Of a stretch of 64,000 bases of DNA, positions 20,391-61,173 are shown one piece after another (position 1 is the stretch's first letter; every line of letters begins with the position of its first letter). The stretch spans positions 184,672-248,671 of the forward strand of contig JAFSOC010000015.1 in the NCBI GenBank assembly GCA_017447185.1, read 5' to 3'. The notes below the pieces were generated by a model. That model was not told the DNA's origin and searched no databases. It saw only the letters and a list, made by a program, of their open reading frames with translations. This stretch comes from Clostridia bacterium. Its GTDB lineage: Bacteria; Bacillota; Clostridia; Christensenellales; Aristaeellaceae. The translations under genes and the position numbers were made by a program.

Positions 20391-20480
20391 GGCGGAGAGT
20401 TAGGGATTTGAACCCTAGGTGAGGTATCACCCCACACACGATTTCCAGTCGTGCGCCTTAGACCACTCAGCCAACTCTCC
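20390..20480 (-). tRNA. tRNA-Ser (GGA)
   Basis: GGAGAGTTGGCTGAGTGGTCTAAGGCG; anticodon arm CACGA-CTGGAAA-TCGTG; long variable arm; GGTTCAAATCC; encoded CCA. Confidence 0.97.
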
Positions 20481-23159: not shown

Positions 23160-23503
23160 GGGGATGATCCGGTTTCGACGGGAATATCGGAAAATGAATA
23201 AGCGAGCCGCAGCCCCTGTACTGCGTATCAACGGGGAAAAACAATAACTGACAATAGCAATTACGCTTTCGCGGCTTAATGCCGCGCGTCGGCCCTGATT
23301 GCCTGCAGATCAGGTCACCGGCGTCAAAAATGCAGGGAACGAGTACCGGCTAAGCTTTGCAACGGTATCCGTAATCATGAAGCTACTTTTTCGGCAGTCT
23401 TTCCGCGGACGGCCGGAAAGGGAAAATAAATCACGGAATGCGCTCGGAGAAAGTTCATTGGACGGATTTTCGGACAGGGGTTCGACTCCCCTCATCTCCA
23501 CCA
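23160..23503 (+). ncRNA. ssrA: tmRNA; tag peptide (A)DNSNYAFAA at 23250-23279
   Basis: 5' GGGGATG..TTCGAC pairs with 3' GGTTCGACTCCCCTCATCTCCACCA; ATAACT-GAC resume context; tag ends in AA-stop. Confidence 0.97.
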
Positions 23504-23579: not shown

Positions 23580-23661
23580 TGCGGTCGACGGGACTTGAAC
23601 CCGTACCCATTGCTGGACACGCCCCTCAAACGTGCGCGTATGCCGATTCCGCCACGACCGC
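23580..23661 (-). tRNA. tRNA-Leu (GAG)
   Basis: GCGGTCGTGGCGGAATCGGCATACGCG; anticodon arm CACGT-TTGAGGG-GCGTG; variable arm; GGTTCAAGTCC; CCA not encoded. Confidence 0.96.
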
Positions 23662-30382: not shown

Positions 30383-30455
30383 TACACCATTAGGGACTCG
30401 AACCCTAGACACCCTGATTAAGAGTCAGGTGCTCTACCAACTGAGCTAATGGTGC
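30383..30455 (-). tRNA. tRNA-Lys (CTT)
   Basis: GCACCATTAGCTCAGTTGGTAGAGC; anticodon arm CCTGA-CTCTTAA-TCAGG; GGTTCGAGTCC; CCA not encoded. Confidence 0.96.
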
Positions 30456-44327: not shown

Positions 44328-44568
44328 AAAGAAACCGCAGTTCAGCCGGAAGGCGATGAACCGCGGTACCACTTCCATTCTGCGGGATCAGAGAGAATCC
44401 CGCACTCAACAAGCTGTAACCGGCAGACCGGATCTGCCCTAATCAGACAAAGGATCCTTTCAGGCAAATAGCTCCGGGATGTACTTCCCCGCAGAAGCGA
44501 ATGCTTTTTCACACCGGCCAAAAGCTCTCTGAAAACGCAGTCCGGGGTACTCTTCCCATCATTGCAGA
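44328..44568 (-). promoter_or_regulatory. T-box riboswitch, Tyr (UAC) specifier
   Basis: AGUA/GAA loop, AGAGA and GGUG-GAA-like stem I motifs, GAAG-TAC-ATCCC specifier (44481-44483), T-box TGGTACCGCG and terminator; TTGACA-N17-CATAAT promoter at 44576-44604. Confidence 0.92.
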
Positions 44569-44712
44569 TAAACATATTATGCGTTCAAAGGCTTGTTCTG
44601 TCAAGCCATTTTCAACTTGATTATATAATTTAAATCTTGTATAATTATATGAATCCTTTTTCATCTCCCGGACTGTGAATGCAGGACCGGAATGCACGGG
44701 AGGAATGATTTC

Positions 44713-56761: not shown

Positions 56762-59278
56762 TTATTTTTTCGGGTTTCCGGCAGTGTCGATTCCGGCAGC
56801 ACCGACAAGTCCTAGGCGTTCCGCGGCTTCTTCCCGCATTTTGTACTTGAGGATTTTGCCGGCCGCATTCATCGGGAAATGATCCACAAATTCAATATAC
56901 TGAGGAACCTTGTGACGGGCCATATGGCTTTTGATGTATTCCGTCATCTCTTCGGATGTCAGGGATGCATCTTTCTTTTTGATAATGCATGCCATAACAG
57001 CCTCGCCGTATTTGGCATCCGGAACACCGATGACCTGCACATCTTCCACAGCGGGATGCGTATAGATAAATTCTTCAATTTCCTTGGGATAGATGTTTTC
57101 ACCGCCGCGGATAATCATATCTTTCAGGCGTCCTGTAATCAGATAGGTTCCGTCTGGATTCCTGCGGGCCAGATCTCCGGAGTGCAGCCATCCGTCTTTA
57201 TCAATTGCTGAAGCGGTGGCATCCGGCATTTTATAGTAACCTTTCATGATGTGATAACCGCGGGAGCAGAATTCACCATCCTGGCCGTCAGGAAGTTCAT
57301 TGCCGGTTTCCGGATCAATCACTTTACACTGAACATGCGGGAATGCGTATCCGACGGTTTCTGTACGCAGACTGAGCGGATCGTTCCAGTCTGACATCGT
57401 ACTGCCGGGAGAAGATTCGGTTTGTCCGTAAACACTGACGATTCCGCGCATATTCATCTCATCCGGCTGAGCTGCACGCTTCATCAGTTCAGGCGGACAA
57501 CCGGATCCGGCCATAATGCCTGTCCGCATGTAGGAGAAGTCTGTTTTCCGGTAATCTTCATGGTTGAACATTGCGATAAACATTGTCGGGACACCGTGAA
57601 AACAGGTAATTCTTTCCTGGTTGATACAGGCAAGGGAATTCTTGGCAGAGAAGTAGGGAAGCGGACAGAGTGTGGCCCCATGCGTCATGGAAGCTGTCAT
57701 CGCAAGCACCATACCGAAGCAGTGAAACATCGGAACCTGGATCATCATGCGGTCCGCCGTAGACAGGCCCATCCTGTCACCGATACATTTACCGTCATTC
57801 ACAACGTTGTAATGCGTCAGCATAACACCTTTCGGAAAACCGGTTGTCCCGGATGTGTACTGCATGTTACAGACATCGTCTGGCTTAACATGCGCGGACA
57901 ACATCCGGATTGTTTCCTGTGAAACGGTATCCGCCCTGCGCATTGCCTGATCAAAAGTCAGGCATCCGGGCTGCCTGAAGTCAACGGTAATTACATTTCG
58001 CAGGAAAGGAAGGCGTTTGCAGTGAAGCGCTTCGCCCGGCTTTGCGGAAGCAATTTCCGGGCACAGCTCATTGATGATTTCTTTATAATTACTGTCCAAC
58101 GCTTTTTCAATCATTACAAGTGTATGGGTATCGCTCTGACGCAGCAGATAGTCAGCTTCATGGATTTTATAGGCTGTATTCATAGTGACGAGTACAGCGC
58201 CGATCCTGGCACAGGCCCAGAAAGTAATATACCATGCCGGGACATTCGTTGCCCAGACAGCAACCTTGGCGCCCGGTTTCACACCCAGTGAAACAAGTGC
58301 CCGGGCAAAACAGTCAACATCATCCCGGAAACCTGAATAGGTTCTTGTATAATTCAGGGTTGTATATTTGAAAGCATACTGATCCGGAAATTCCTCTGCC
58401 ATTCGGTCCAGAACCTGACCAAAGGTTTCATCAATCAGTTCATCCTTTTTCCATACATATCTTCCTGAGCCGTCAAAGTTGAAGTAGAGGGATTTCTTTT
58501 TTCCTTTTGGATTATCAAAGCGGTTCATGTAGTTCACGAAATGGGAGAAAATGATTTCCCGGTCAGAAAGATCTTCCATCCATTCTGTTTTCCATTCGAG
58601 GGAAATAAAACCGCTGTAGTCAATGGAAGAGAGCGCGTTCATGAATTCCTTTACGGGAAGCGTTCCTTCACCGATCAGGTTATAGGATAGATCATCGTTG
58701 GAATCGCGCAGGTGAACATGTTTCACGTATCCACCGAGATTCCTGATGGTTGTATCGGGGGATTCATGGAAATCACGGTAAGGATGGTGCACATCCCAAA
58801 GACAGCCGAGTTCATCGCAGGCATATTCATCCAGCAGGGAACGAAGACGTCCGGTATCGGCGTAAATCCCGGTTGTCTTGATCAGAAGGGTTACTTTTTT
58901 GTCAGCGGCATCCGGAAGCACTTCATCAAGGAAATGCCTGACCTGTTCCTCCCGGTGCGTAAGCGCGCAGACAGCTACATACGGAATATGCATGGAACCG
59001 GCAACATCAAAGAGCATCCGGATCTGATCCGGATCTGTGTTATCCAGACTGATATCCTCTGATGTATCAAAACACGGAATCTTCAATCCGCATTCCTGAA
59101 GCATCCGTTCTGTCTCATTCCGGTTGTATTTATGGAACGGTCCTCCGCGGCTGATCAGGGATTCTATTTTATGGAGATTATAAACTTCAATGCCCTGGAA
59201 TTGCATTTCACATGCGTCTTCCATCTGCTTCATCCAGTCTTTTTCTCTCCATCCGCGGGTTGAAAAAGCAAGGTTCAT
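56762..59278 (-). CDS. fusion of a sugar-phosphate-isomerase/AP-endonuclease-2-like TIM barrel and an acyl-CoA synthetase (ACSF2/YngI-like)
   Basis: N-terminal WDVHH, HVHLRD, GEG.LP and ISLEW; C-terminal YTSGTTGFPKG, VPMFHCFG, YGQTE, WLHSGD, GGENIYPKEIE and GKILK. Confidence 0.9.
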   Translation of the reverse strand: MNLAFSTRGWREKDWMKQMEDACEMQFQGIEVYNLHKIESLISRGGPFHKYNRNETERMLQECGLKIPCFDTSEDISLDNTDPDQIRMLFDVAGSMHIPYVAVCALTHREEQVRHFLDEVLPDAADKKVTLLIKTTGIYADTGRLRSLLDEYACDELGCLWDVHHPYRDFHESPDTTIRNLGGYVKHVHLRDSNDDLSYNLIGEGTLPVKEFMNALSSIDYSGFISLEWKTEWMEDLSDREIIFSHFVNYMNRFDNPKGKKKSLYFNFDGSGRYVWKKDELIDETFGQVLDRMAEEFPDQYAFKYTTLNYTRTYSGFRDDVDCFARALVSLGVKPGAKVAVWATNVPAWYITFWACARIGAVLVTMNTAYKIHEADYLLRQSDTHTLVMIEKALDSNYKEIINELCPEIASAKPGEALHCKRLPFLRNVITVDFRQPGCLTFDQAMRRADTVSQETIRMLSAHVKPDDVCNMQYTSGTTGFPKGVMLTHYNVVNDGKCIGDRMGLSTADRMMIQVPMFHCFGMVLAMTASMTHGATLCPLPYFSAKNSLACINQERITCFHGVPTMFIAMFNHEDYRKTDFSYMRTGIMAGSGCPPELMKRAAQPDEMNMRGIVSVYGQTESSPGSTMSDWNDPLSLRTETVGYAFPHVQCKVIDPETGNELPDGQDGEFCSRGYHIMKGYYKMPDATASAIDKDGWLHSGDLARRNPDGTYLITGRLKDMIIRGGENIYPKEIEEFIYTHPAVEDVQVIGVPDAKYGEAVMACIIKKKDASLTSEEMTEYIKSHMARHKVPQYIEFVDHFPMNAAGKILKYKMREEAAERLGLVGAAGIDTAGNPKK

Positions 59279-60696
59279 GCTTCTTCCTCCTCATAAATAA
59301 TTTTGTTCAGTGCGTTGATATAAGCCATAATACCAGCACCGACAATATCCGTGGATATGCCTTTTCCGGAATATAGCTTTCCGTCTGAGCGGAGCCTGAT
59401 CAATGTTTCGCCCATGGCTTCACGCCCTTCTGTGACGGACTGGATCTGGAAATCATCCAGTTCAAAATGTCTGCCGGTGGCTTTTTCAATGGAATTGAAG
59501 GCAGCATCAATTGCCCCATCGCCGGTGGAAATACCTTCCAGCTGTTTTCCGTGGAGAGAAAGTTTCATATGAGACATTGCACCGATGGTGCTGCCTGTGT
59601 TAATTACATATTGAATATCTGTATATGCAGGGGGAACCTGCATTGCCTCCGTAGCGACAATTGCTTCGAGTTCCCTCAGGGTGATTTTATCCTTGCTGCG
59701 GGAGACTTCCTGGAACCTGGTCCAGACTTTCTCAAGATCATCTTCCGTAAGGTCATATCCCAGTTTGGAGATGGCTTTGGAAATAGAATCATGTGATTCA
59801 TGGGCATTTATGGTAATGCTGTCATTTTGCGTTTCCGTGTTCCGGACAGGCATAAATGAGTGTGAAAGCCCGGAACGGCAGAGGTTTTCGATCTGAGCGG
59901 TGAGCGTATTGATTTTTTCGACTCCGATTCCAAGGGAGATATCGAAATGCTTCTGTTTAACATTCAGGATGCTGACAATATTCCGCAGGGAAATACTGTC
60001 TGTTCTGAATGCAGCGGCCTTTATTTCGCGGATACCACATCGGACGGCTTCAATGGCACAGGCATCAGACAAATTCATGGTATCAGCACAGGAATATCCG
60101 ACAGTAATGTTTTTCATTTCCGGTACGTGTTCAAAAAGGGGTCGCAGAAAAAGGCCTGTTTCGTCCGGAAGCATGGATCCGGCTGTGTCACAGAGCGTTA
60201 TAGTGGATGCGCCTGCTTCGATGGCTTTCCGAAGGACATCCTGCAGGAATCTACTGTCGCTGCGGGTTGCATCCATCGCAACGAACTCCACGTTAGAAGT
60301 ATATTTCCGGCATTCCGTGATTCTGTCGGCGATCTGGCAGATTAAAGCGTCCGGTTTGATGTGGGAAAGATATTCCATCTGTACAGAACTGACAGGTACG
60401 ACAATCTGCAGACGGGGATTGTCCGCGTCCTTGAGAGCATCCCATACGATATCCACATTGCTTTGCGAAAGGCTGACAGGAACTGCAAGCCTGGAATTCG
60501 AAACAGCCTGACTGACAGATTTGATCAGAAGACTGTCGATTTTTTCATTGACAATTTCTTTCAGGGAAATATAGTCCACATCCAGTTTGTCCAGCATTTT
60601 GCACAGTTCGATTGTTTCCCGGAAACTCAATTCGGGACTTTTTTCTCCCTGACAAAGTGTACAGTCACAGATACAGACCTTTTCGGAATTGCTCAT
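59275..60696 (-). CDS. degenerate 2-isopropylmalate synthase (LeuA) paralogue with intact regulatory domain
   Basis: HMGL-like barrel traces (VEF.AMDATR, IEAGA.TI...DT.G); C-terminal GDGAIDA and GISTDIV..AYINALN; catalytic motifs missing. Confidence 0.85.
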   Translation of the reverse strand: MSNSEKVCICDCTLCQGEKSPELSFRETIELCKMLDKLDVDYISLKEIVNEKIDSLLIKSVSQAVSNSRLAVPVSLSQSNVDIVWDALKDADNPRLQIVVPVSSVQMEYLSHIKPDALICQIADRITECRKYTSNVEFVAMDATRSDSRFLQDVLRKAIEAGASTITLCDTAGSMLPDETGLFLRPLFEHVPEMKNITVGYSCADTMNLSDACAIEAVRCGIREIKAAAFRTDSISLRNIVSILNVKQKHFDISLGIGVEKINTLTAQIENLCRSGLSHSFMPVRNTETQNDSITINAHESHDSISKAISKLGYDLTEDDLEKVWTRFQEVSRSKDKITLRELEAIVATEAMQVPPAYTDIQYVINTGSTIGAMSHMKLSLHGKQLEGISTGDGAIDAAFNSIEKATGRHFELDDFQIQSVTEGREAMGETLIRLRSDGKLYSGKGISTDIVGAGIMAYINALNKIIYEEEEA

Positions 60697-60711
60697 TTGT
60701 TCTTTCCTCCT

Positions 60712-60972
60712 AAAAAAATATAAGCCCTGAAGCTATATGCTTCAGGGACGAAAATATCGCGGTACCACCCATTTTACTGCCATATGGCAGTCACTCTCGG
60801 ACTCAGACAAGTCCATAGCCGATTACGGGGCGTCCGGGCTTCATTACTGGAGCATTGCTCGTTCACAAAACCGGCTCCGGAAGCAGTCAGTTTTCATTCC
60901 TGTACTGTCTCACAGCATACGACAGCTCTCTGAAACATTCCTGGAAACATTCTTTCCTTCATTGCCTTTGAT
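60712..60972 (-). promoter_or_regulatory. T-box riboswitch, probable Leu (CUG) specifier
   Basis: AGAGA and GCTGTGA stem I motifs; GA-CTG-CTTCCGGAGC in the same register as TAC of the Tyr T-box; T-box GGGTGGTACCGCG; terminator CCCTGAAGC/GCTTCAGGG with T run; TTGACA-N17-TAGTAT promoter at 60987-61015. Confidence 0.88.
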
Positions 60973-61173
60973 ATTCAATTGAATGGATACTATCATAATC
61001 CATGTTTGATGTCAACCGATTCATCCGGTGCAGAGATTGTATTTTTCATGTTCAATGAACAGCCTGGAAATGTTGATTCTGCAAGGGAAAGAAGAGGAAT
61101 ATAAATTGACAAAAATGGTGAATTTGATATCATATACGTAGTTTTTATCTGATTGGAAGGGAAGTCTTGCTGT

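Follow-up and report, generated by a model that had tools for sequence, protein, structure and literature searches.

We examine here a two-gene operon in a 64,000 nucleotide stretch of DNA (called the window below) from a Clostridia bacterium of the family Aristaeellaceae (assembly GCA_017447185.1, contig JAFSOC010000015.1, positions 184,672 to 248,671). The operon and all of its features given below lie on the minus strand. A T-box leader for leucine is followed by gene 1 (59275..60696), which encodes a 473 amino acid relative of LeuA without its catalytic residues (pseudo-LeuA), and by gene 2 (56762..59278), which encodes an 838 amino acid fusion of a triosephosphate isomerase (TIM) barrel and an acyl-coenzyme A (acyl-CoA) ligase. 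The domains detected are HMGL-like and LeuA_dimer in gene 1, and AP_endonuc_2, AMP-binding and AMP-binding_C in gene 2. A preliminary description of this DNA proposed that the ligase salvages branched-chain acids for leucine supply and that the dead LeuA was retained as its leucine-sensing partner. As a whole, that interpretation is partly supported by the results presented here.

The leader (60741..60971) scores 111.1 bits with Rfam family RF00230, whose gathering threshold is 93. It is complete, as had been claimed: stem I carries the specifier codon CUG (Leu; 60884..60886), the T-box core sequence of the antiterminator is found at 60758..60770 by both the RF00230 match and the sequence, and an intrinsic terminator hairpin (60747-60725) with its U tract occupies 60712..60747 (-16.4 kcal/mol for 60712-60750). 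The T-box structure was not obtained when stem I was folded alone (z -0.39); the specifier codon was taken from the Rfam alignment and from comparison among leaders, which share the same register. In a T-box of this terminator type, the uncharged cognate transfer RNA (tRNA) causes read-through, i.e., the genes are on when the amino acid is short. Ahead of the leader is a sigma-A type promoter-like site (60987..61015; TTGACA-17-TAGTAT, extended TG, 10 of 12 matches). The promoter proposed earlier is thus present and well placed, but such sites are not above chance in the region (14 found versus 9.5 ± 3.5 in shuffles), and this one counts only because it stands just ahead of the leader. Gene 1 has a ribosome-binding site, AGGAGG, at 60706..60711. 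The proposed translational coupling of the two genes is plain in the sequence (59275..59290), where GGAGG (59290-59286) precedes an ATGA stop/start overlap (59278-59275). The module is flanked by an mreB-like gene and a phoH-like gene on the opposite strand. Assembled contigs from four RNA-labelled runs cover the region, one of them corresponding to 58364-60885; such contigs show neither transcription, strand nor level, and they suggest at most a bovine gut habitat.

Gene 1 has the architecture of LeuA, a DRE-TIM barrel followed by a LeuA_dimer domain, and the barrel superposes on PDB entry 3ewb with a root-mean-square deviation of 1.9 Å. Its scores fall below the LeuA family cut-offs (288.5 versus 532 for NF002086; 258.6 versus 598.7 for TIGR00973). 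At the DRE helix it reads CQGEK where LeuA has RDGEQ, it has SCA at the HxH metal ligands, and the NGIG loop is also lost. All 12 intact clostridial LeuA proteins compared have RDGEQ and HxH, whereas across 75 pseudo-LeuA homologues neither the DRE Asp nor either metal His is among the five commonest residues at its position. In all 75, the subdomain I block HESGIH..TYE, which includes a conserved Tyr, is a gap, while subdomain II is kept. The allosteric (regulatory) domain (residues 338-466; 59299..59685) is the most conserved part of the protein. Conservation across 121 homologues is 0.80-0.93 at residues 351-473 versus 0.60-0.78 in the barrel, and the motifs GDGxxDA and STD, presumably the leucine-binding motifs, are present in 74-75 of the 75. 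The ratio of nonsynonymous to synonymous substitution rates (dN/dS) is 0.02-0.22 in subdomain II and the regulatory domain (12 pairs). For the barrel, 11 of 12 pairs could be computed and gave about 0.07-0.27; dS was often close to saturation. In the tree, the pseudo-LeuA homologues form one clade (support 100) among clostridial short-form LeuA and apart from CimA, which rules out gene 1 as a CimA derivative. Judged by its residues, gene 1 is a maintained pseudoenzyme: the catalytic residues are gone and the ligand domain is under purifying selection, so that the earlier view of a LeuA both dead and retained holds. Genes of this type are widely open to mis-annotation as isopropylmalate synthase. 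The domain layout of LeuA agrees with that in PMC10464499.

At the related locus L019, pseudo-LeuA is broken into two frames (L019:6543-7997). At L154:6112-7404, in genome G153, a 430 amino acid LeuA has the DRE and HxH motifs intact and the HESGIH block absent; it lies in a complete ilv-leu operon, and the genome also has a fused ligase with an intact barrel pocket. This LeuA is either an assembly error or a natural intermediate.

The adenosine monophosphate (AMP)-forming ligase part of gene 2 (residues 291-808; 56855..58408) appears catalytically intact. It has the motifs of ANL ligases: the P-loop YTSGTTGxPKG, YGQTE, GD, GRxKD and the catalytic Lys. The P-loop is identical in 95 of 95 homologues, and D702, R717 and K808 are invariant in 67. 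The N-terminal part (about residues 1-255; 58514..59278) is a xylose-isomerase-like TIM barrel (AP_endonuc_2) with a remodelled pocket. Lys134 replaces the first metal glutamate, Ala102 and Tyr33 each replace an arginine, and the Glu-Asp-His-Glu metal site is therefore incomplete. Of 81 barrels linked to pseudo-LeuA, 59 have Lys and 15 have Glu at position 134, and 10 retain Arg102. In contrast, all 14 fused barrels without pseudo-LeuA have the complete site (Glu31, Arg102, Glu134, Asp162, His165, His189, Lys191, Asp192, Glu228), and the full metal and basic pocket is found in 7 of 7 stand-alone barrels without pseudo-LeuA. Arg33 and Lys231 are also present in all 13 complete-pocket copies shown (7 stand-alone, 6 fused). 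From these residues, the fused barrel of the window lineage is degenerate, a point that the preliminary description overlooked. Whole-protein fold searches with the gene 2 model matched ligases only and gave nothing for the barrel; its sequence matches in PDB are uncharacterised proteins, and the Atlas label of the stand-alone barrel is sugar phosphate isomerase/epimerase only.

At least 595 genomic matches were found, and the best 80 loci were analysed. Pseudo-LeuA is immediately upstream of the ligase in 72 of these 80 (five others are cut by contig ends and three are without it), with a 4 or 1 nucleotide overlap in 63 of the 72 pairs; across most carriers, identity in the pseudo-LeuA barrel is 33-50%. 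Of the 68 loci with enough upstream DNA, 50 have a T-box core there. All 48 leaders that could be parsed before pseudo-LeuA (47 loci and the window) specify Leu (CTG 30, CTC 17, CTA 1), which bears out the expected leucine specificity. The leaders before ligases without pseudo-LeuA are also all Leu (15 of 15 parsed, from 31 loci examined), so leucine control belongs to the ligase. Two odd readings, "CTA" before the Val-clade ligase of L044 and "TGA" at L087, are parsing slips; by eye they are GTC and CTC.

The neighbourhood of the module points to salvage. At least one of a helix-turn-helix (HTH)-cupin ligase, vor (2-oxoisovalerate:ferredoxin oxidoreductase), ilvE, a vor-linked ATPase or a single-chain pyruvate:ferredoxin oxidoreductase (PFOR) is present in 59 of the 80 loci, and vor genes or the vor-linked ATPase are nearby in 38. 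HTH-cupin ligase genes occur in 43 of the loci, and their 51 leaders specify Ile (32) or Val (18), with one misparse. One branch divides the ligases under Ile leaders from those under Val leaders, and the best NCBIfam match of the Val-type ligase tested is MbcS. These Ile and Val leaders, with the Leu leaders and the vor and ilvE context, support amino acid supply over catabolism, as first argued from the T-box. In 14 of the 80 loci (L018, L019, L020, L031, L037-L039 and others), the gene behind the ligase, in most cases with none between, encodes PFOR (TIGR02176, over cut-off), which may be a dedicated carboxylase for isovaleryl-CoA. A 228 amino acid CbiA/ParA-like ATPase is found in 37 of the 80, usually just before the vor genes (e.g., L036:406-1092); its homologue in the window's own genome (C10:102946) is unlinked to vor. 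A Glu/Leu/Phe/Val dehydrogenase, a possible alternative to IlvE, follows the ligase at L067:2472-3509, and its cluster is seen in three loci. The module is also found in records that carry the labels Bacteroidota, Eggerthellaceae, Abditibacteriota and Spirochaetaceae (L042, L049, L061, L064, L069, L082). All of these except L082, which is not in the ligase tree, nest there among clostridial copies, and they may represent either gene transfer or mis-binning.

Does the window's own genome lack the classical pathway? In its assembly, which is 88.66% complete, there is no match for LeuC/aconitase, LeuD, ilvC or ilvD, and the sole Iso_dh match is a 420 amino acid frame, the size of an isocitrate dehydrogenase. 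The reported lack of leuBCD next to the operon thus extends to the assembly. Genes like those for isocitrate dehydrogenase and Re-citrate synthase are nevertheless present, and the missing aconitase family is probably an assembly gap. The salvage parts are there but scattered: a ligase under a Val T-box at C12:20294 and one under an Ile T-box at C39:40593, vor at C30:92013-94370 (VorB 564.5 versus an NCBIfam cut-off of 399), and an ilvE-like gene at C10:386128 (49%). The ligase of the module is only about 24-26% identical to its MbcS-like HTH-cupin neighbours. Two further clusters, which we take to be indolepyruvate-oxidoreductase-like and each with a CoA-ligase-like gene (G000:C30:124519-128364 and G000:C21:29380-33519), suggest a parallel salvage of aryl acids into aromatic amino acids.

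We then ask how the parts co-occur in a sample of 151 genomes of the order. The ligase is present in 82 of them, 28 with the fused form and 54 matching the ligase part only. Pseudo-LeuA is found in 16 genomes and is directly upstream of the ligase in all 16, so the co-occurrence of the two genes, proposed earlier as a test, is observed both here and in the related loci. The converse fails. In the sample, pseudo-LeuA is missing beside 12 of the 28 fused ligases and beside every stand-alone one, which rules out that the ligase always has this partner and removes the claim of an obligatory one. Many of these ligases without pseudo-LeuA are still under Leu T-boxes. The dead partner is thus an addition made in a single lineage. 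The barrel family, whether fused or not, follows the ligase closely, with 68 of 82 ligase-positive versus none of 69 ligase-negative genomes. Carriers of pseudo-LeuA mostly lack the classical genes, as anticipated: LeuB is found in 1 of 16 versus 73 of the 135 other genomes, and a separate LeuA in 1 of 16 versus 12 of the 12 fused-ligase genomes without pseudo-LeuA. Among the genomes of 50 of the 80 loci, LeuB is over the cut-off in 6.

A second association concerns intact LeuA. In the 77 genomes without a LeuB match, a LeuA-type regulatory domain is present in 40 of 42 with the ligase versus 1 of 35 without it, and that single ligase-free case is CimA-like. Removing from the 42 ligase genomes the 15 with pseudo-LeuA and 5 whose leu pathway looks complete leaves 22. 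The five (G079, G109, G136, G176, G178) were rejected as orphans, with a leuA-leuC operon in four and a LeuB-like dehydrogenase in all. Neither ilvC nor a LeuC-sized protein was found in any of the 22. An orphan leuA with intact motifs is present in 16 of these 22 genomes without leuB, leuC and ilvC, versus none of the 35 ligase-free genomes; of the remaining six, four have CimA only and two have neither. The 16 genomes span 10 families and have long and short LeuA forms, some under their own Leu T-box. The orphan leuA is in 14 of 16 genomes with a barrel gene versus 2 of 6 without one. A general retention of branched-chain synthesis genes is ruled out, since ilvC is in none of the 16. As side observations, the ligase-positive genomes G104, G112, G162 and G199, in which leuB, leuC and ilvC are missing, retain a CimA-type synthase, and at L189 (G061:C4:87500-100000) an orphan intact leuA adjoins convergent vor genes.

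Taken together, we consider it probable that the unit is the leucine arm of a branched-chain-acid salvage system in which the dead LeuA serves as the ligase's leucine-sensing partner. When leucine is short, uncharged tRNA-Leu would cause read-through of the leader. The ligase would then convert isovalerate to isovaleryl-CoA, taking adenosine triphosphate (ATP) to AMP; its motifs are seen, and the substrate is suggested by regulation and context. A VorB-type oxidoreductase with reduced ferredoxin would carboxylate isovaleryl-CoA to 2-oxoisocaproate, and IlvE would transaminate this to leucine; both genes are present, and the flux through them is predicted. For 2-methylbutyrate and isobutyrate, the HTH-cupin ligases with Ile and Val leaders would provide parallel arms. 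Activation of isovalerate by the ligase, with flux through Vor and IlvE, is in our judgment very likely. Pseudo-LeuA, made 1:1 with the ligase, would bind leucine in its regulatory domain and turn the ligase down at high leucine, docking most likely on the remodelled face of the fused barrel. For this leucine-dependent control through the barrel, we put the case at somewhat better than even.

Several observations weigh against these conclusions. The genomes are related to one another and mostly metagenome-assembled. Twelve fused ligases do without pseudo-LeuA (one of them, in G140, is split across contigs), 15 of the 81 pseudo-LeuA-linked barrels retain Glu134, and 18 of the 68 loci with enough upstream DNA have no T-box core directly upstream. 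In the ligase tree, one branch (support 97) parts the ligases with pseudo-LeuA from those without, so that the link between pseudo-LeuA and barrel remodelling amounts to one event. The ligase family is not confined to genomes lacking the classical route: 40 of 74 LeuB-positive genomes also have it, and G135 has pseudo-LeuA together with a full leu operon. The oxidoreductase genes predicted for carriers are there, with Vor beta in 28 of 28 fused-ligase genomes, a count made in carriers only, with no control set. As for the substrate, the best curated family of gene 2, PRK12583 (NF009233), misses its cut-off (665.6 versus 832), the solved structures closest to it belong to aryl- and fatty-acyl ligases (20-31% identity), and PDB sequence and fold searches gave no solved relative that reveals the substrate and no characterised close relative.

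Could the salvage hold and pseudo-LeuA act elsewhere? It might sense leucine for Vor or the adjacent PFOR, or be a structural or channelling subunit of the ligase. The PFOR behind the ligase in 14 of 80 loci and the vor genes or ATPase near it in 38 would fit this, and nothing at the level of an interface singles out the ligase as the target. However, the ligase is the only invariant neighbour of pseudo-LeuA, usually in overlap with it (63 of 72 pairs); in the window's own genome, vor and PFOR sit on a different contig from the module; and the best conserved part of pseudo-LeuA is the regulatory domain and not a new surface. We regard these roles as unlikely. That pseudo-LeuA is a decaying relic carried between T-box and ligase could be read from the broken copy at L019 and from a barrel down to 33-50% identity across most carriers. 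This reading, which seems to us very improbable, is largely refuted by dN/dS far below 1 in every computable pair. In addition, almost all loci have an unshortened protein, and its catalytic parts are gone while the regulatory motifs stay in 74-75 of 75. A catabolic unit that handles leucine-derived acids in fermentation is harder still to credit. Vor and IlvE are reversible and run in the oxidative direction in amino acid fermenters, but a terminator-type T-box is on at leucine shortage, and an AMP-forming ligase spends ATP and conserves none.

Two explanations assign the ligase other chemistry, and both appear improbable to about the same degree. One is that it mainly supplies isovaleryl-CoA or short acyl-CoA primers for branched membrane lipids, with leucine control being indirect. 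Branched acids do go into lipids of rumen bacteria, according to PMC7709123, and MbcS serves lipid synthesis in Staphylococcus aureus; against this stand three ligases under three matching amino acid T-boxes, clustered with vor and ilvE in genomes mostly without LeuB. The other is that ligase, barrel and LeuA form a catalytic LeuBCD bypass from 2-isopropylmalate, with the barrel being an enzyme that has decayed here to a scaffold. It would account for the restriction of the barrel to ligase-positive genomes (68 of 82 versus 0 of 69), the full pocket of the barrels examined that have no pseudo-LeuA (14 of 14 fused, 7 of 7 stand-alone), and the intact leuA that 16 of the 22 genomes lacking leuB, leuC and ilvC retain. 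Yet no short chemistry is evident that would lead from isopropylmalate to isovaleryl-CoA or 2-oxoisocaproate through a ligase and an isomerase-type barrel; carriers of pseudo-LeuA keep a leucine-controlled ligase without either active site; and without ilvC, the LeuA substrate would itself need to derive from valine or isobutyrate.

The orphan leuA genes lead to a bolder possibility, which we advance tentatively and hold to be rather doubtful: LeuA may have a second job as the leucine gauge of the ligase system, and in the window lineage a metabolite relay may have been replaced by protein contact. In the older state, an intact, leucine-inhibited LeuA, kept though leuBCD and ilvC are gone, would make 2-isopropylmalate as a signal of leucine shortage, and the metal/arginine/lysine pocket of the TIM barrel would read this signal and switch the isovalerate ligase on. 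In the window lineage, both pockets would have decayed together, with the coupled dead LeuA touching the barrel directly. The two unrelated LeuA forms among the orphans would be easier to reconcile with a common product than with a common interface. Against such a signal, the 359 amino acid dehydrogenase of G129 may be LeuB-like, the genomes are relatives, gene losses come in groups in reduced genomes, and the work of LeuBCD could be taken over by a promiscuous aconitase and isocitrate dehydrogenase. If it were true, a small-molecule signal would have been converted to a protein-protein signal.

Elsewhere in the window, on the minus strand, there is a second T-box (44346-44571; 107.9 bits) whose specifier, by eye, is TAC (Tyr); the genes behind it are presumably an aminotransferase-like and a tyrosyl-tRNA-synthetase-like gene. 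The window also has a transfer-messenger RNA (23160-23503, plus strand) and three tRNAs (20393-20480, 23580-23661, 30383-30455, all minus strand).

It was established some six decades ago that anaerobes of the rumen and gut build leucine, isoleucine and valine out of branched-chain acids, and ruminants receive isoacids in their feed. In the literature searched, we found no paper that assigns the activating enzymes of this route or their control. Three ligases under matching T-boxes represent a directly testable gene assignment. They also offer a genomic marker by which isoacid dependence could be recognised in uncultured Clostridia. This is relevant to cultivation and to metabolic models, which would call such genomes auxotrophic. 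If pseudo-LeuA does regulate the ligase, a feedback sensor has outlived its pathway and moved to the pathway's replacement, and an earlier stage of this transfer may be preserved in the orphan intact leuA genes.

How does the module compare with known systems? The full-text literature searched has no description of it; most subscription papers lie outside that coverage, and comparative T-box surveys may list such operons. The closest relation is the rumen route to leucine, isovalerate carboxylation followed by amination (Allison and colleagues, 1962-1971, as given in PMC7356843). The predicted route has the same steps (CoA ester, reductive carboxylation, amination) and parallel routes from 2-methylbutyrate and isobutyrate. 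As for the earlier idea of an alternative leucine pathway built on a relic, what would be built on the LeuA relic is the control, while the chemistry is the long-known carboxylation. The accessible account of that work is physiological and names no genes, whereas here the matching Leu, Ile and Val T-boxes point to candidate genes, and a dead-LeuA partner is added. Activation of scavenged branched acids by AMP-forming ligases is also seen in MbcS of S. aureus and IbuA of R. palustris (PMC11167679). The same source gives MbcS a Km of 8.9 µM for isobutyrate, 5.5 µM for 2-methylbutyrate and >500 µM for isovalerate; since MbcS is so poor on isovalerate, a separate ligase family is needed for leucine. 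MbcS feeds lipids and lacks both a fused barrel and a partner, and gene 2 belongs to another, PRK12583-like subfamily. With short-form LeuA (TIGR00973, NF002086; PDB 3ewb, 3rmj and the leucine-bound 3fig), gene 1 shares the barrel fold, subdomain II and the regulatory domain; it differs in scoring below all cut-offs, in the loss of catalytic motifs and in being unlinked to leuBCD. The gene 2 barrel shares with xylose-isomerase-like barrels (AP_endonuc_2) the fold and part of the metal site (Asp162, His189, Asp192, Glu228), but the first metal Glu is Lys, and the family tracks the ligase and not sugar genes. Finally, a study of Thermus thermophilus (bioRxiv 2025.10.31.685773) describes dead-enzyme sensors, ADLP acting on a CoA transferase, and GdhA and APRTh on glutamate dehydrogenase. 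There, as we propose for pseudo-LeuA, a dead copy keeps its ligand site and regulates a different metabolic enzyme; the folds and ligands are others, and binding and regulation, which that account demonstrates, are predicted here.

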